DNA from: Sulfuricurvum sp.
Lineage (GTDB): Bacteria > Campylobacterota > Campylobacteria > Campylobacterales > Sulfurimonadaceae
Direction: 5' to 3'
DNA: 64,000 nucleotides
Assembly: GCF_028688295.1 (NCBI RefSeq)
Contig: NZ_JAQTYM010000004.1
Span: 643-64,642 of the forward strand
A model generated the notes under the pieces. The model saw only the letters and a program-made list of their open reading frames with translations. It was not told the DNA's origin and did no database searches. A program made the translations under genes and the position numbers. Every line of letters starts with the position of its first letter. The stretch's first letter is position 1. This document shows, in pieces, positions 1 through 15,150 of this stretch.

Positions 1-1492
1 TATCCATAGGATCACGTTTTATTTTTAGTTTGAGTTTTTGATCATTGGTATCTTTTCGATTCACAAAACGGCGTAACGTATCTTCGTAATAGGTAATGTC
101 CTCTAAAGTGATTCCATTGCGCTGGACAGTACGATAAAAAGTAGGAAGGAGCGATATGCGGATATGCTCGTCATCTTCGATCATAGCGGGGAGAATACCG
201 ACTTGCGGATTATTCTCGTCTTCCTCGATACCGAACTGGTATCGTTGCAATGGGGTGGTTTCGATTCCGTTATGGTAGGTCTTATGATAGATGTTTACAA
301 TGTACTGTGTCAACCATTTTTCGAGTTCTTGGATAGTTAGAGAAGCTTGCTTCTCTGAATCATAACTACCGCGTTCTTTGACATTGGAAAAGGTAGCTCC
401 AGGAAGGTTATGTATCTCCTTATTGATTGTTCCGAAAATTCGTTCTACATGTCCACCAAATTGAGGTCGCGCTACGGGGCGTTTTTCGATCGAAATACCG
501 TACTCTTCACAGACTCGTTGAACTTCGGTCCCAACTAGCTCAGCACCATTATCCACGTGGATTACGCGCGGAGTTCCATAGATGGGCCATTCACCTTCGA
601 TATGGAGTTTTTTGAGATAGCGTTCTTTTGGGAGAAAGCATTGATAGAGGCATTGTCCAACGTTGAAAAAGCCAGGTCCTTGGAAAGAGAGGAAAAAGCC
701 AGCAACCATCCGACTGTAGACATCGATAGCCAGTGTGAGATAGGGTCTGCCGATTGGAAGTCGGCGAAGATCATCTACAAGGATGATATCAAGTGGTGTA
801 TGATCGATTTGATAGACATCAAGAGGATAGTTGCCGTTTTTGAATTCTCCTGAAAAGTCACCGTATTGCGATAGAGCAGTTTTGTAGTTTTCTCGGCGTT
901 TGAGCATATACATCGGATCAATCTCTTTAATCCGATTGCGGACGGTATTTTCACTAGGCACTGGAGTGTTTTTATGAAGACAGGCTTGATTGATTTTCAT
1001 ATAAGTTCGTTTGAATGAATGTTTTTGTTTTTTGAGATAGTAATTCTCAAGAAAATCGTCAATGATCTCATTTGTATCTTTGTGAAGGCGTTTTTCTTTA
1101 GGACCGCGCTTTTTGGTTTGCGGTATTAGCGCACTTAATGTTGGGTTGGATTCAAAAGTTGATAGCCAACGATAAACGGTGGCTTGTCCAATGTGATTAG
1201 CATCAGCTATTTTTTTAATATCTGCTTCGCTACGCTTTATGCCTACAAGAGGCTTGATAATTTCCAATCTTTTTTTAGCTGTGTTCCATTCGTTCTCAGT
1301 GTGATCATTTAAATCGATAGTAGGTGAATCATTGTGGGGTTTCGTAGAGAGTTCAGTAATAGAAATGGATGCAACATTACCATATTTTGTATGTTTGATA
1401 TTGACTTTAGTGAGCCCATCGGCTCCCACCACTTTATACTCTTCATCGTCCCAATAAACGGTTGCACCATAACTGAAGTCTACTTTTGCCAT
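1..1492 (-). CDS. tnsB: TnsB/TniA-family DDE transposase (3' end outside window; absent from the ORF track)
   Basis: Manual translation from ATG 1492 is open to the window edge (~497 codons): MAKVDFSYG...HTH-like GQATVYRWL...YQIDHTPLDIILVD...GRPYLTLAIDVYSRMVAGF...IHVDNGAEL...GGHVERIFGTIN. D-D-E triad intact; start overlaps the tnsA stop by 13 nt. Confidence 0.93.
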   Translation of the reverse strand, partial: MAKVDFSYGATVYWDDEEYKVVGADGLTKVNIKHTKYGNVASISITELSTKPHNDSPTIDLNDHTENEWNTAKKRLEIIKPLVGIKRSEADIKKIADANHIGQATVYRWLSTFESNPTLSALIPQTKKRGPKEKRLHKDTNEIIDDFLENYYLKKQKHSFKRTYMKINQACLHKNTPVPSENTVRNRIKEIDPMYMLKRRENYKTALSQYGDFSGEFKNGNYPLDVYQIDHTPLDIILVDDLRRLPIGRPYLTLAIDVYSRMVAGFFLSFQGPGFFNVGQCLYQCFLPKERYLKKLHIEGEWPIYGTPRVIHVDNGAELVGTEVQRVCEEYGISIEKRPVARPQFGGHVERIFGTINKEIHNLPGATFSNVKERGSYDSEKQASLTIQELEKWLTQYIVNIYHKTYHNGIETTPLQRYQFGIEEDENNPQVGILPAMIEDDEHIRISLLPTFYRTVQRNGITLEDITYYEDTLRRFVNRKDTNDQKLKLKIKRDPMD

Positions 1493-2127
1493 GTAATATC
1501 CTTAATAAGGAGTGAATTCATTGAAAGTTTCTGGGTCAAGTCTATTGTGTTTGGGTTCAATGCAAGAAAGTGCCAAAGGTAGGGGATGACTTTCCCATGA
1601 TTTGAGTTATCGGTATCGATAGCATATAAAAAATCCATCAGAGATATAGGACCAGAAAGATCTTCGTAAACACTTATAAAGCGTTCGTCAAACTTTTCTG
1701 TATTTTTCAAAAATGCGAATTTGTATAGGAACTTTAGATTTTGCAAATAAACCTGATCAAATGTCGCATCAGTGTAAATCATAAAATTGTATTTACCTTC
1801 ACTCTCAATTTGATTGGTGATACAAGAAAGTTTTTGCCGTAATTCCTCATCAGCATCAAGTTCATTTTTGTACTTGACTTCAAAAACTGTCGAAGAGTTA
1901 TGATAATGAACAAGTGCGTCCGGAGTATAAAAACGGTTGCTTCCATCGAACTCATACCGAAGTTTAAAAGGTTGTTCTTCAAATGAAACCACGGATGGAT
2001 CGAATTCAAGTGTTAGAAAAAAGTCATGCTCAAGTGTTGATTCGAATGCAAGCTGTCGATTATTCTTGCGGCTCATAAAGTATCCGGTAACAGAGCGATA
2101 GCTCTTTTTGATTTTTCTAACTGCCAT
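1480..2127 (-). CDS. tnsA: TnsA-family endonuclease subunit of a heteromeric transposase
   Basis: FESTLEHDFFLTLEFDPSVVSFEEQP...YTPDALV...FEVK matches the TnsA N-terminal PD-(D/E)xK pattern; lies directly upstream of tnsB. Confidence 0.9.
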   Translation of the reverse strand: MAVRKIKKSYRSVTGYFMSRKNNRQLAFESTLEHDFFLTLEFDPSVVSFEEQPFKLRYEFDGSNRFYTPDALVHYHNSSTVFEVKYKNELDADEELRQKLSCITNQIESEGKYNFMIYTDATFDQVYLQNLKFLYKFAFLKNTEKFDERFISVYEDLSGPISLMDFLYAIDTDNSNHGKVIPYLWHFLALNPNTIDLTQKLSMNSLLIKDITWQK

Positions 2128-2169
2128 GAAAAAATCTTACAACTTTTGTAAAAAATTAGCAAGTGTAAT

Positions 2170-2328
2170 AAATTATTATTAATTAGTGTATTAAGTAATA
2201 TATTATCATTTATAGCTGTATTTATTATCATGATATATTTCCTATGATTTCTCATTAAATAGGCACTTTTAAGTAGTTTTACGAGTATAATCATGCAGAT
2301 TTATTCTCATTAATTGTTGCGTATGACA
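2170..2328 (-). repeat. Transposon end with terminal TGT and repeated putative TnsB-binding sites
   Basis: Minus strand: TGTCATACGCAACAATTAATGAGAAT. Core ATGA(G/T)AAT-like copies at + coordinates 2303-2310, 2287-2294 (degenerate), 2247-2255, 2224-2231 and 2202-2209. Very AT-rich. Confidence 0.75.
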
Positions 2329-2937
2329 AAAAAACTCTCTTTATCCGGTATGGTTGTCGTAAGCGGTGCTGCTGCAGGGGTTGATCAAATCGCCCATGAG
2401 GGAGCAGGGGCTGAGAATACTATTGCCGTTTTACCTAGCGGTATCGATGTACGTTATCCTGCTTCGAATCAGAAGCTTATTGAAAATATCGAAATGAAAG
2501 GGCTCACACTGAGTCAGTTCGAACCTGATTTTGTAGCGCGTGAGTGGAGTTTTGTTGTACGCAATGAGATCGTTGTGGCTCTGGGTGACGTATTAATCGT
2601 CTCAGAGGCTGATATCGGCAGCGGTAGCATGAGAAGTGTTGAATTTGCATTAGCAATGCAGAAACCCATATATGTACTTCCTCATCGTTTACGTGAGAGC
2701 AATGCTACCCGTCAACTGCTGGCTGAAGGGAAAGCTAGTGCGATTGATGATATCGATTTATTTATTGCACTGATGAGTCAAAAGGGGCGTAATGCAATCA
2801 ATGATACACCATTTATTGCATTTTGTCGTAATCATCCAACCTATGACGAGGCGATGGGTGCATTTCCTGCAGAGATTTTTGAGGCAGAACTCAGTGGTGT
2901 GATAGAGGTTAAAAATGGGAGAATTGAGGTGGTCTAA
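2329..2937 (+). pseudogene. dprA: DNA-processing protein DprA, 5'-truncated by the transposon insertion
   Basis: VVSGAAAGVDQIAH, RNEIVVALGD, SGSMRS and the short Campylobacterota-type C-terminus are present. The N-terminal part, including the usual IVGTR motif, is missing (about 202 aa remain). The ORF start at 2314/2323 lies inside the transposon end. Confidence 0.85.
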
Positions 2938-8529: not shown

Positions 8530-9740
8530 TGCTAATTGTCCAAAAATTTGGCGGAACCAGTGTCGGCGATTTGGAGCGAATCCAAAATGTTGCTAATCGT
8601 GTCTCTCAAACACTTAAAGAGGGACATCAAGTCGTCGTAGTTGTTTCGGCAATGAGCGGTGAAACAAACAAACTCATTGCGTATGCGGAACATTATACCG
8701 CTACCCCTGAGCGTAGTGAAGTGGACATGCTTCTGAGCTCTGGTGAGCGGGTAACGGCTGCCTTGCTTTCCATTGCCCTCAATGCAATGGGGCACAGTGC
8801 CACCTCGATGAGCGGGCGTCGAGCAGGGATCGTGACCGATAGTATCCATACGAAAGCACGGATTGAGAGTATTGATCCATCCACAATGCACTCAGAGCTC
8901 GCAAGCGGTAAAGTCGTTGTTGTTGCCGGATTTCAAGGGGTGAGTGAGAGCGGTCAAGTGACCACGCTAGGTCGTGGAGGATCGGATCTCTCTGCTGTAG
9001 CTCTCGCAGGGGCTTTGAAAGCTGATTTATGTGAAATTTATACCGATGTTGACGGTATTTATACTACCGATCCGCGAATTGAACCACGTGCTAAAAAGAT
9101 GGATAAAATCAGCTATGATGAAATGCTCGAACTCGCATCTCTCGGTGCTAAAGTACTGCAAAACCGCTCAGTAGAGCTTGCCAAAAAACTAAACGTTAAC
9201 CTCGTAACCCGATCCAGCTTTAGCGACGCGGAGGGGACACTTATTACAAAGGAAGAGAATATTATGGAAAAACCACTTGTCAGCGGTATCGCACTCGATA
9301 AAAACCAAGCACGTGTATCTTTGAGCGGCGTGATCGATCGTCCTGGAATCGCTTCGGACATCTTTACCCGTTTGGCTGACAATAGTGTCAATATCGATAT
9401 GATTATCCAAACTTCAGGGCATGATGGCAAAACCAATCTTGATTTTACGGTTCCTAAAACAGAATTATTGGATGCAAAAAAAGTGGTGGAAACGTTTATC
9501 GCCGAAGATGAGATATCCGAAGCATCATACGATGAAAACATTTGTAAAGTCTCTATCGTCGGTGTCGGGATGAAATCGCATACCGGTGTCGCAGCAAAAG
9601 CGTTCCAAACCATGGCACGTGAAAATATCAATATCATGATGATCTCTACCTCAGAGATTAAAGTATCGATGGTCGTTGATGAAAAATACGCAGAGTTAGC
9701 GGTTAGATCATTGCACAGTGCTTACGCGTTGGACAAGTAG
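8529..9740 (+). CDS. lysC: Aspartate kinase
   Basis: VQKFGGTSV, TTLGRGGSDLSA, two C-terminal ACT domains. Confidence 0.96.
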   Translation: MLIVQKFGGTSVGDLERIQNVANRVSQTLKEGHQVVVVVSAMSGETNKLIAYAEHYTATPERSEVDMLLSSGERVTAALLSIALNAMGHSATSMSGRRAGIVTDSIHTKARIESIDPSTMHSELASGKVVVVAGFQGVSESGQVTTLGRGGSDLSAVALAGALKADLCEIYTDVDGIYTTDPRIEPRAKKMDKISYDEMLELASLGAKVLQNRSVELAKKLNVNLVTRSSFSDAEGTLITKEENIMEKPLVSGIALDKNQARVSLSGVIDRPGIASDIFTRLADNSVNIDMIIQTSGHDGKTNLDFTVPKTELLDAKKVVETFIAEDEISEASYDENICKVSIVGVGMKSHTGVAAKAFQTMARENINIMMISTSEIKVSMVVDEKYAELAVRSLHSAYALDK

Positions 9741-10288
9741 TGCGCAAATTTGATCAGTGGACATTAGAATCAATCCGCTCTGTCGGAGCATCGATGAGCT
9801 GGTTCGAAGAGCAGCGTTTTGAATGGACTCCTGCACTTGCTAACGCCATGGATCAAATGATGGGAGGGAAAAGTATTGTCCTTGTTACCGATAATGATCG
9901 ACAATGGTTTTCCCATTACATAACTGCTTCACTAAACAAGCGGACGCAAGATCGTCCTATGATTCCGATCGTTTGTATTGATGCCCTTTATCCTCATTAT
10001 GATTCTATTAGTGGCGGAGAATCGATTGATATGTTGAGCGATATGCTCGATATCACTTTTAAAGGTGAATACTTCTTTTGGTATATCGGTCGCGGTGATG
10101 ATCGTCGTGCCGATATCGCCAAACGTAATACGAACTCTTTGTTATGGATTATGGACGAACGATTTCAAAATGCGTTAGTCTTGCGCTCTCATGATGAACT
10201 TATCGACATCAAATTGCTACAACTTTACCGACTTTTCGACAAAACACTCAGTGCGGTATTATTTGGGGAGATCAATGTTCGAGAATGA
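9740..10288 (+). CDS. hobA: HobA family DnaA-binding replication regulator
   Basis: Size and sequence (WFEEQRFEW, RPMIP, YFFWYIG) plus the conserved Campylobacterota order lysC-hobA-holB-folP; GTG start. Confidence 0.85.
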   Translation: MRKFDQWTLESIRSVGASMSWFEEQRFEWTPALANAMDQMMGGKSIVLVTDNDRQWFSHYITASLNKRTQDRPMIPIVCIDALYPHYDSISGGESIDMLSDMLDITFKGEYFFWYIGRGDDRRADIAKRNTNSLLWIMDERFQNALVLRSHDELIDIKLLQLYRLFDKTLSAVLFGEINVRE

Positions 10289-10898
10289 GCGAGGCGGTAT
10301 TCTCATCACCGCCGAGATGGAAGAGCGTGCGCGTGAAATCGAAGAATCCCGGCATCCTCTGCGTTGCGTCACCTTTATGCGGGATGATTTTAAAATCGAA
10401 GACGCCAAAGAGGTTATTAGCGAAGCCTATCGAAGTGAAGAAAATACTAAAACGTTGATTTTGGGTGCCAAAAGTTTTACCATACCGGCACAAAATGCTC
10501 TTCTAAAAATACTCGAAGAACCTCCTCGGAACATTGTTTTTATCCTCCTCGCTCCAAACAAAAGCACTTTCCTCCCCACTGTACGTTCGCGGCTCAGCCT
10601 AAAGCAAGAACACCATGAACGTCTTTATGAATCTTTACCTATAGCCCTTAAAAATCTTGATCTCTCAGGGTTATTTACCTTTGTTAAACAACATGATCGG
10701 CTCAAAAAACATGAAGCTAAAGGGTTGATCGAGCAGCTGATGCATCAGGCAATTCATGTCGAAAAATTGTCGCTTACTACAGCACAGCTCGAAGGATTCG
10801 AGAAGGCTCTGCGTCTGATTGAGCTCAATAGCCGTTTACAAAGTGTATTGGTCATGGTATTGATGAATTTCCTCAAAGAGGTCAAACGTGGTCGTTGA
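10275..10898 (+). CDS. holB: DNA polymerase III subunit delta'
   Basis: AQNALLKILEEPP...FLPTVRSR. Start moved from the track's 10191 to the in-frame ATG at 10275 after GGGGAG. Confidence 0.88.
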   Translation: MFENERGGILITAEMEERAREIEESRHPLRCVTFMRDDFKIEDAKEVISEAYRSEENTKTLILGAKSFTIPAQNALLKILEEPPRNIVFILLAPNKSTFLPTVRSRLSLKQEHHERLYESLPIALKNLDLSGLFTFVKQHDRLKKHEAKGLIEQLMHQAIHVEKLSLTTAQLEGFEKALRLIELNSRLQSVLVMVLMNFLKEVKRGR

Positions 10899-13846: not shown

Positions 13847-15150
13847 AATACAACCTTTGCTTCTGCATATTTGATACGGCTTTGTACCGCTTTACCGACG
13901 ATAACGAGGGTAAATGCGAACACCCCGATACGTCCCATAAACATTAAAAGAATGATATTTGCTTTACCCCAGTCACTAAACAAAGCACTGTAGCTAAGGG
14001 TTCCTCCATTACCTGTGGATAAACCGACTGTACCGAATGCTGAGCATGCTTCAAACAGAGTTCTTAAAAACGGTAATCGCTCGACTTCACTGAGGAGCAC
14101 GGTAGAAAAAACGACATAGATTGATGCGATGAAAATAATCGCATAGGCTTTGTTGATTTGGTACTGAGAAATTGAACGGCGAAATATATGGGCATGGGTA
14201 TCACCTCGCAGCGTATACCATACGCCGATAAGGGCTAATGCCACGGCTGTGATTTTGATCCCTCCGGCTGTTCCGCCCGGTGCCCCACCAATCATCATAA
14301 AAAAGGTAGAAAAAAAGAGGTTGGCATCGCTCAGGGTTGAGAGGTCTATGGTGTTAAAACCTGCTGTACGGTAGTTAACTGAAGCAAACCATGCGGCAAG
14401 GAGTTTTTCATCCCAAGAAAATGATTTTAAGGCATTATTCCATTCCAAAGAGAGGAGTAACCCCATCCCTAACACGATAAGTATTATCGTCATAATCAAT
14501 ACGATTTTGGTATGAGTAGAGAGGCGTAAAATCTCTTTTTTACGGTAGTGATAGAGTTCGGTGAGGACAAGATAACCCACCCCCCCTAAAATGATCAAGA
14601 TAGGGATCGTCAGATTGATCACCCAATCTTTTGAGTATCCCATCATGTTATCACTAAAGAGAGAAAATCCGGCATTGTTAAACGCTGAAATGGCATGAAA
14701 AATCCCATACCAAGCCGCTTTTTCTATCGGCATATCGACCCAAAAACGGAGGGTTAAGACAATCATACCGATCACTTCAATAATGAAAATCGAGCCAAAG
14801 ACAATTTTTAAAAATCGTACAAGCCCGTCCATACCTGGATAATTGAGGGATTCTTGGAGGATCAGTCGATCGCGATGACCGATTTTTTGACGGCGCATAA
14901 CGGCTAAGAAGGTAACCGCTGTCATGTATCCTAATCCCCCGATTTGGATGAGGAGCATAATAATCACTTGCCCCATAGGGGTAAAATCAACAGGGGTATC
15001 TTTTACAATCAATCCGGTTACGCACACTGCAGAAGTAGAGGTAAAAAGTGCATCGATAAATCGAAGCTCTCCGTAATGGGCAAAAGGCATAAGTAGTAGT
15101 AACGTTCCGAATCCGATTAGCCCTATAAAGCTGAATAGGATTAGTTTCAT
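13843..15150 (-). CDS. ktrB: Trk/Ktr K+ uptake membrane subunit (KtrB/TrkH)
   Basis: Four pore loops: SAVCVTGL, SAFNNAGF, RTAGFNT, SAFGTVGLS; GGTAGGIK. Confidence 0.92.
   Translation of the reverse strand: MKLILFSFIGLIGFGTLLLLMPFAHYGELRFIDALFTSTSAVCVTGLIVKDTPVDFTPMGQVIIMLLIQIGGLGYMTAVTFLAVMRRQKIGHRDRLILQESLNYPGMDGLVRFLKIVFGSIFIIEVIGMIVLTLRFWVDMPIEKAAWYGIFHAISAFNNAGFSLFSDNMMGYSKDWVINLTIPILIILGGVGYLVLTELYHYRKKEILRLSTHTKIVLIMTIILIVLGMGLLLSLEWNNALKSFSWDEKLLAAWFASVNYRTAGFNTIDLSTLSDANLFFSTFFMMIGGAPGGTAGGIKITAVALALIGVWYTLRGDTHAHIFRRSISQYQINKAYAIIFIASIYVVFSTVLLSEVERLPFLRTLFEACSAFGTVGLSTGNGGTLSYSALFSDWGKANIILLMFMGRIGVFAFTLVIVGKAVQSRIKYAEAKVVL

Follow-up and report, generated by a model that had tools for sequence, protein, structure and literature searches.

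The window analyzed here, a 64,000-nucleotide stretch of Sulfuricurvum sp. DNA (positions 643-64642 of contig C111, in the 137-contig assembly of genome G000), opens within a Tn7-like transposon whose right end lies inside dprA, a conserved competence gene required for the natural uptake of DNA. Comparison with related loci strongly supports dprA as a dedicated, programmed attachment site for this Tn7-like group across Campylobacterales: 15 occupied dprA genes were found, interrupted at two exact positions and in a single orientation, with the right end of the element always facing the 3' part of the gene. At the level of sequence, the comparisons establish the anatomy of the element, its site specificity and its horizontal spread. 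The explanation that we hold with considerable confidence is TniQ-directed homing of a Tn7-like element into dprA, with an element-borne copy, dprA2, most likely substituting for the gene that is split.

An element inserted within dprA

Immediately to the right of the element, from position 2329 on the + strand, the sequence AAAAAACTCTCTTTATCCGGT... encodes a frame (KKLSLSGMVVVSG...) that runs to a stop at 2937. Its match to Pfam DNA_processg_A starts at profile position 65 of 212 and spans 65-208; 57 codons of dprA are missing in the window, the insertion splitting the gene between codons 57 and 58. Across the G000 assembly, a scan guided by Pfam located three dprA pieces: the 3' part in the window, a 5' part on contig C122 and a complete gene on contig C132. 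The 5' part (MNGT...ISIVGTRRPNPYTRAITYELSK; C122:8838-9010) ends in ...CTCTCTAAAAA and is followed directly by the left end of the element (TGTCATTTCCAAC... / TGTCATTTCCAACAAAAAACGAGAAT...). At the two junctions, ...CTCTCTAAAAA meets TGTCAT and ATGACA meets AAAAAACTCTCT, and the flanks share a 5-bp duplication, AAAAA. Removal of the element together with one copy of AAAAA gives a 259-codon dprA open reading frame (ORF), which can be aligned over its full length, without gaps, to intact dprA genes from ten relatives in the genus. The gene order of these ten relatives (ilvC - polysaccharide deacetylase - dprA - cytochrome - soxC-like - queA - tatC) is that of C122 followed by C111.

Much of this had been anticipated by a first-pass annotation of the window, which described a TGT-terminated end at 2328, placed the resumption of dprA mid-gene at 2329, estimated that some 50-65 N-terminal residues were lost, and predicted an AAAAA duplication, a second transposon end and a dprA 5' half elsewhere. 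The end and the resumption, at codon 58, were both read; the size estimate agrees with the 57 missing codons; and the three predicted features were all found on C122. Relatives had been named as a check on whether dprA naturally starts at the junction: in all ten the gene is intact and colinear with the restored ORF.

On the + strand positions 2321-2328 read ...GTATGACA, the transposon finishing in ATGACA at 2328 (5'-TGTCAT on the element strand). The right-end terminus, TGTCATACGCAACAA, is mirrored over its first 15 bases by the left end, TGTCATTTCCAACAA, at C122:9011. Approximately four to five direct copies of (A/T)TTAATGA(G/T)AAT are present in the right end and fewer in the left; these are presumably binding sites for TnsB, and an excess of repeats at the right end over the left is an asymmetry typical of Tn7. 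The right end of G000 is 87-89% identical to those of loci L019 and L029. The reported intactness of the catalytic motifs of both transposase subunits is borne out by conservation: the TnsB triad D230/D314/E350 is invariant across 21 homologs, and TnsA residues E29/E33, D70 (YTPD) and K85 (EVK) are invariant across five diverse homologs. At full length tnsB comprises 622 codons, its end lying ~370 bases to the left of the window on C111, where the full ORF was read. TnsA matches Pfam Tn7_TnsA-like_N (E 1e-12) and Tn7_Tnp_TnsA_C as well as the NCBIfam TnsA-like model.

Related loci were collected by running TniQ queries against GTDB genomes, the genus and 5.8 billion proteins. Wherever TniQ identity is 51% or higher and the contig includes the junction, a truncated dprA adjoins the tnsA-proximal end. 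In ten host lineages the element occupies a first position (site 1), identical to the nucleotide and placed 33 nt ahead of the Ser codon (AGC/AGT) in the motif (V/I)xSGxAxG(V/I)D. The carriers are G000, L019, L020, L027/28 (two loci with identical host sequence, counted as one lineage), L029, L030, L033, L049, L051 and G330, which is Aliarcobacter cryaerophilus ATCC 43158. From locus to locus the host flanks vary, both at synonymous sites and at the duplicated pentamer; the duplications read at both junctions are AAAAA (G000, L019, L033), AGAAA (L051) and TCCAA (G330). An order-wide TnsA scan of 401 Campylobacterales genomes gave six further genomes with a dprA fragment beside tnsA: G330, at site 1, and five in which the insertion lies at a second position (site 2), near codon 89/90 and 12 nt before the codons for G(I/L)D(I/V)RYP. 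The five site-2 genomes (G276, G262, G316, G396 and G096) include Arcobacter roscoffensis and Sulfurospirillum arsenophilum. Their duplications are, in the same order, ATACT, GTTTC, GTGGC, GTTGT and TGATT, the last found in G096, where the insertion is offset by 2 nt and stands beside a decayed tnsA. Besides G000, nine elements show both junctions together with a 5-bp duplication, and the empty site is seen in relatives that hold an intact dprA in the same gene order. A search for TnsB-family elements at the same dprA position in other genomes, which the first-pass annotation had proposed, is answered by ten lineages, G000 included, at site 1; five more genomes are occupied at site 2.

Synonymous divergence (dS) from G000 amounts to 0.06-0.64 for tnsA, 0.12-0.58 for tnsB, 0.16-0.38 for tnsC and 0.53-0.95 for tniQ, while host soxC, queA, tatC and the cytochrome gene, in the same genome pairs, give values of 1.1-2.1 or are saturated. 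Because the divergence of the elements falls far below that of the host flanks, the elements are judged much younger than their hosts and to have arrived separately. The suggestion that dprA is a new target for Tn7-like elements is sustained by the 15 occupied genes, the two exact positions, the independent duplications and the relative youth of the elements.

The dprA 3' frame in the window is still open and continues in phase from the ATG-ACA that closes the transposon end. An open frame of 200-202 codons persists in each of the seven disrupted site-1 3' parts that were examined. Disrupted and intact dprA have similar proportions of nonsynonymous and synonymous differences (pN and pS), with no visible decay, in a comparison in which synonymous sites are saturated. 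A right-end ATGACA (or GTGACA) in frame with the dprA 3' part is found at window positions 2323-2334 and in L019, L020, L029, L030, L033, L049, L051, G276 and G316. It could provide a Met-Thr start to a DprA truncated at its N-terminus; no clear ribosome-binding site was seen before the ATGACA/GTGACA at these junctions.

The element-borne dprA2

The complete dprA on C132 (dprA2; 258 aa) is the only complete dprA in G000; it has the same orientation as the split host gene and is ~60% identical to it. It holds the full DNA_processg_A domain (Pfam E 1e-54), scores 175 bits against the NCBIfam dprA model, below the model cut-off of 191, and aligns to residues 9-208 of Helicobacter pylori DprA (4LJK/4LJR, E 6e-48) and to the C-terminal domain 6GW7. 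Seven elements carry dprA2 alongside otherwise dissimilar cargo (Wadjet JetABCD, a Dpd-like 7-deazaguanine system, restriction-modification-like genes and phosphoesterases), and the gene is 84-92% identical in L019, L020, L027/28, L029, L050 and L052. Pairwise ratios of nonsynonymous to synonymous divergence (dN/dS) of 0.06-0.13, at dS 0.43-0.77, indicate purifying selection. In the Sulfuricurvum part of the DprA tree, the sister group of the dprA2 clade consists of native dprA genes from two other species of the genus, both in a normal chromosomal context: dprA2 was thus captured from a different lineage of the genus.

The site-2 element of G276 contains a different intact dprA, 51% identical to that of its host and outside the dprA2 clade, which by its sequence is a second, independent capture. 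With 3 bases between it and the stop codon of the left-end gene, this copy is oriented like the host dprA promoter, from which it could be read. The G276 element (L084 3534-11071) also carries a ShlB/CdiB-type transporter and a 1926-aa CdiA-like protein with a PT-VENN pre-toxin domain, and this two-partner secretion pair adjoins the internal dprA. Locus L019 has, ~2.2 kb from its intact dprA2, a remnant of a dprA C-terminus (14399-14533, - strand; aa 217-257, 63% identical to dprA2, with one stop codon); it may be the relic of an earlier insertion into, or a deletion of, an element-borne dprA.

Immunity of dprA2 by virtue of its own sequence was considered and rejected: none of the bases invariant across targeted sites has been lost from the gene, and its site is as similar to the targeted sites as those are to each other. 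dprA2 is probably itself a potential target, which would be shielded in cis by target immunity, to judge from the biology of Tn7/Tn6022 (PMC11014353) and of an archaeal element (bioRxiv 10.1101/2025.07.27.667033).

According to the first-pass annotation the insertion switches off natural transformation. For the G000 element this is probably wrong, because the element supplies an intact dprA, one that bears the mark of purifying selection; for relatives that hold no intact dprA the claim is plausible. dprA2 is predicted to be expressed and to possess DprA activity, and most likely replaces the gene that the element destroys, which would turn a conserved competence gene into a nearly cost-free landing site. 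A more specific form of this idea, to which we give an even chance, is self-complementing homing: the elements would take a universally conserved competence gene as their address, and a foreign, working dprA, acquired at least twice, would leave the host unharmed, or else dependent on the element for transformation.

Choice of site and competing explanations

TniQ has the conserved Cys/His columns of a zinc ribbon and matches in sequence both TnsD and the TniQ of CRISPR-associated transposons (CAST). In the TniQ tree, separate, well-supported clades are formed by Sulfuricurvum site 1 (support 98/99), by site 2 (100/95) and by an argJ-trkA-rpmB group (100/100). In the mechanism we propose, TniQ, as a zinc-ribbon selector of the TnsD/TniQ type, would recognize the highly conserved DNA encoding the DprA motif (V/I)xSGxAxG(V/I)D..AH and recruit TnsC and the TnsAB transposase. 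TnsAB would place the element upstream of the motif at a constant spacing, right end facing it, with formation of the 5-bp duplication; dprA is split as a result, and a sister TniQ clade makes use of the second position near codon 89/90. TniQ is predicted to bind conserved coding sequence on the right of the insertion, 20-75 bp away from it, a geometry analogous to that of TnsD at attTn7: the invariant bases of the site-1 insertions cluster there, and the 33-nt distance to the Ser codon is constant in 10/10.

The group named for argJ-trkA-rpmB is a sister TniQ clade (37-39% identity to the TniQ of G000) that is not at dprA. In its members L032 (Sulfurimonas lithotrophica CP043617), L035 and L036, the left-end side always abuts argJ-trkA-rpmB and the tnsA side varies, which suggests another fixed attachment site at this junction, possibly with tandem elements.

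The first-pass annotation had left the selector as TniQ/TnsD, TnsF or RNA-guided, and of these the TniQ/TnsD type is favoured; the TniQ tree tracks the site. CRISPR-guided targeting was rejected: no cas domain occurs in any searched ORF of the complete L019 element and the G000 contigs, and no CRISPR repeat array in L017 or L019 (Rfam was not searched), which also sets the element apart from CAST. A TnsF-type selector was likewise rejected, because the gene after tniQ varies by element (an Eco57I-like methylase, DUF6471, KfrA_N and others), no recombinase domain is found in the complete L019 element or the G000 contigs, and the target is dprA and not comM.

Several points weigh against TniQ-directed homing with replacement of dprA. 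The TniQ of A. cryaerophilus, an occupant of site 1, sits on a long branch apart from the three clades, that of Sulfuricurvum site 1 included, and the correlation of TniQ with site is therefore imperfect. The best fold match of the TniQ model, to TnsD in the TnsD-TnsC-DNA complex 8v32 (Foldseek probability 0.92), comes from a moderate model (mean pLDDT 67.6) and from weak matches (E 2e-3, TM ~0.2-0.3). The conserved left-end protein of ~565 aa may contribute to targeting. The complete elements of L033 and L051 lack an internal dprA, and G330, G396, G316, G262 and G096 are without any intact dprA: replacement is thus not required in the family. Selection on dprA2 could, moreover, serve the element rather than the host. 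The G000 element is spread over three contigs, with one gap unclosed, in a metagenome-assembled genome (93% complete, 1.3% contamination), and support for the explanation as a whole comes from comparing sequences throughout.

Some of these same observations would suit an element that disables natural transformation and so guards itself against removal by incoming wild-type DNA, dprA2 being inactive, unexpressed or put to another use. The host gene is cut at codon 58, upstream of most of the fold; the five genomes just listed and the two complete Sulfuricurvum-type elements without dprA2 fit such a role, and the targeting of comM by Tn6022 is read in this manner in the literature (PMC10293859; bioRxiv 10.1101/2025.07.27.667033). 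We nevertheless consider disablement unlikely, in view of a full-length dprA2 with dN/dS ~0.1 kept in seven elements of differing cargo, and of a second element lineage that took up a dprA independently, a pattern hard to explain if loss of DprA function is the benefit. Another alternative is that the dprA on C132 does not belong to the element. G000 is a bin of 137 metagenomic contigs, C111 and C132 are linked by a 127-base overlap only, and dprA2 has its nearest relatives among the native dprA genes of other Sulfuricurvum species, as might be expected of a binning or assembly artefact from another organism. Such an artefact is highly improbable, given that split dprA, tnsABC-tniQ, cargo and intact dprA2 (84-92% identical) are contiguous on single contigs in L019, L020, L027, L028 and L029, that dprA2 is contiguous with tnsABC-tniQ in L050 and L052, and that the C132 copy lies amid cargo-type genes and not in the native ilvC-deacetylase / cytochrome-soxC context.

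With regard to the choice of site, RNA-guided or TnsF-type targeting, or a left-end protein acting as the true reader, is very unlikely. That protein is kept family-wide at 33-50% identity without a recognizable domain, as a reader might be; yet between G000 and L019, which share a site, it is 48% identical, no closer than between dprA-site and argJ-site elements (47-50%), and in L033 and L051, both exactly at site 1, it is reduced to ~280 aa. For the RNA-guided and TnsF versions, the L019 element and the G000 contigs offer neither cas gene, CRISPR array nor recombinase domain, and the gene after tniQ is different in every element. Finally, dprA might be no programmed target at all, its occupants descending from one ancient, vertically inherited insertion or landing by chance; most site-1 cases do come from one genus, and a close TniQ occurs in only 3/66 species representatives. 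This view is already contradicted and close to untenable: dS is 0.06-0.95 for the elements against at least 1.1-2.1 for flanking host genes, in the DprA tree occupied hosts and species with an empty site intermingle, the duplications follow the host sequence (AAAAA, AGAAA, TCCAA) at one position, the seven examined 3' parts all retain open frames, and the same gene is targeted in Arcobacteraceae, Sulfurospirillum and a further family.

Remaining genes, known systems and implications

Table 1. Features of the dprA-borne element of G000 and of its target (positions without a contig name refer to the window).
Feature	Location	Strand	Basis or remarks
tnsB (DDE transposase), first 497 codons	2..1492	-	Pfam rve, Mu-transpos_C, HTH_Tnp_Mu_2
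tnsA (endonuclease subunit of heteromeric transposase), 215 aa	1480..2127	-	Pfam PF08722 + PF08721
Transposon right end	2128..2328	-	terminus 5'-TGTCATACGCAACAA on - strand
5-bp duplication AAAAA, right copy	2329..2333	+	left copy at C122:9006-9010
Host dprA 3' part, codons 58-259 + stop	2329..2937	+	Pfam DNA_processg_A, alignment with intact relatives
Predicted TniQ recognition region, +21 to +75 from insertion	2349..2403	+	codons for VVVSGAAAGVDQIAHEG
tnsC, TniB type, 311 aa	joined across C111/C132		Pfam TniB E 2.6e-60
tniQ, 381 aa	C132 side, after tnsC		Pfam TniQ E 5e-23
Eco57I-like methyltransferase, 761-aa GHKL ATPase, ORFs without assignment, complete dprA (dprA2, 258 aa), RnlA/RnlB toxin-antitoxin pair, RNase H-domain protein	after tniQ, in this order		
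Left-end part: conserved ~565-aa protein, 390-aa protein, four metallophosphoesterase genes	C122		
Left-end protein, ~565 aa	L018 (G000:C122) 9058-10755	+	just inside left end

On its left, contig C111 breaks off within tnsC, where 127 bases are shared with the end of C132. No partner overlapping by at least 12 bases was found for the contig ends that are still open (C122, C132), and the G000 element remains unclosed: its size is at least 24 kb, the part beyond C111 being on C132 and C122. The order tnsA-tnsB-tnsC-tniQ is contiguous on single contigs in L019, L027 and L029. Walker A (GEGNNGKS) and Walker B (LVIDEIH) motifs were read in TnsC. Comparison of G000 with L027 shows a core module of mosaic divergence (dS 0.06 for tnsA and 0.12 for tnsB, 0.95 for tniQ), a pattern that indicates recombination swapping the selector gene between elements. 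The cargo consists of defence-type genes (the methyltransferase with the GHKL ATPase, RnlA/RnlB and the four phosphoesterases) in addition to the foreign, intact dprA2. The phosphoesterases are four tandem calcineurin-like metallophosphoesterase genes at L018 12122-15489; the same block is present at L052 6247-9742, and the TniQ proteins of L018 and L052 are only 57% identical.

The left-end protein has no match in Pfam, NCBIfam, PADLOC or PDB sequences, whether searched singly or as a profile, and its AlphaFold model is poor (pLDDT 43.5). Relative to G000 it is 48% identical in L019, 47-50% in the argJ-site loci L032, L035 and L036, and 33% in G276. It could be an unrecognized fifth core protein of this Tn7-like lineage.

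The right ends of several elements depart from the simple arrangement seen in the window. Between the terminal right-end repeat and tnsA there is an SDH_protease gene in L028, 4.2 kb of extra DNA in L020 (2279-6569) and a gene for a 1264-aa helicase in L033 (2217-6590), and in L027 the terminal right-end sequence is wholly missing. The extra DNA and the loss may reflect tandem or secondary insertions at a reused site, or decay of the end.

The likeness to Tn7 itself (TnsABC with TnsD, attTn7 behind glmS) extends to the heteromeric TnsA/TnsB, the AAA+ adaptor and a selector of the TniQ/TnsD family; to TGT...ACA ends with several internal transposase-binding repeats (putative here) and a 5-bp duplication; and to insertion in one orientation at a fixed distance, with the right end beside the recognized conserved coding sequence. 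Unlike in Tn7, the recognized sequence lies downstream of the insertion within the same gene, and the target gene is therefore split and not spared; TnsC is short and of the TniB type (311 aa), TniQ is short (381 aa), TnsE is absent, and the left end has its conserved ~565-aa protein.

Tn6022/AbaR-type elements in Acinetobacter comM (PMC10293859, PMC11014353) likewise have an attachment site inside a transformation gene, which they disrupt, and carry defence or resistance cargo. They differ from the present elements in their target (comM, not dprA) and in having a TnsF-like gene after tniQ; many of the dprA elements, by contrast, carry a complete replacement of the target, and two TniQ clades each have their own position within the gene. 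Replacement has a parallel in a Tn7-like element of Heimdallarchaeota: a DNA methylase gene is interrupted, and the cargo includes a methylase with 75% identity to it, for which functional replacement was suggested by the authors (bioRxiv 10.1101/2025.07.27.667033). There too the attachment site lies inside a gene and the cargo holds a homolog of the gene disrupted, but that is a single archaeal element with another target gene, whereas here seven bacterial elements show purifying selection on the copy and a second acquisition is evident. This archaeal methylase was the only precedent found for a replacement copy on a Tn7-like element. Among the papers searchable in full text, none combines dprA with Tn7 and TniQ; five that contain both dprA and the term Tn7-like name dprA a single time each, in one of them in an unrelated context, and two major surveys of Tn7 targets and cargo (one of them PMC10293859) make no mention of dprA; as a Tn7 target site it is apparently undescribed.

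The value of Tn7-like elements lies in integration that proteins or RNA can program precisely, and with every further attachment site another DNA-reading TniQ becomes known. The dprA elements also bear on an open debate, namely whether mobile elements disrupt competence genes to escape removal by transformation or because these genes are conserved. One family here includes both members that leave the host without any dprA (cultured type strains among them) and members that bring an intact replacement under purifying selection, so that the two hypotheses become experimentally separable. If self-complementing homing is true, the DprA-keeping and DprA-abolishing members of this single family would provide a natural contrast.

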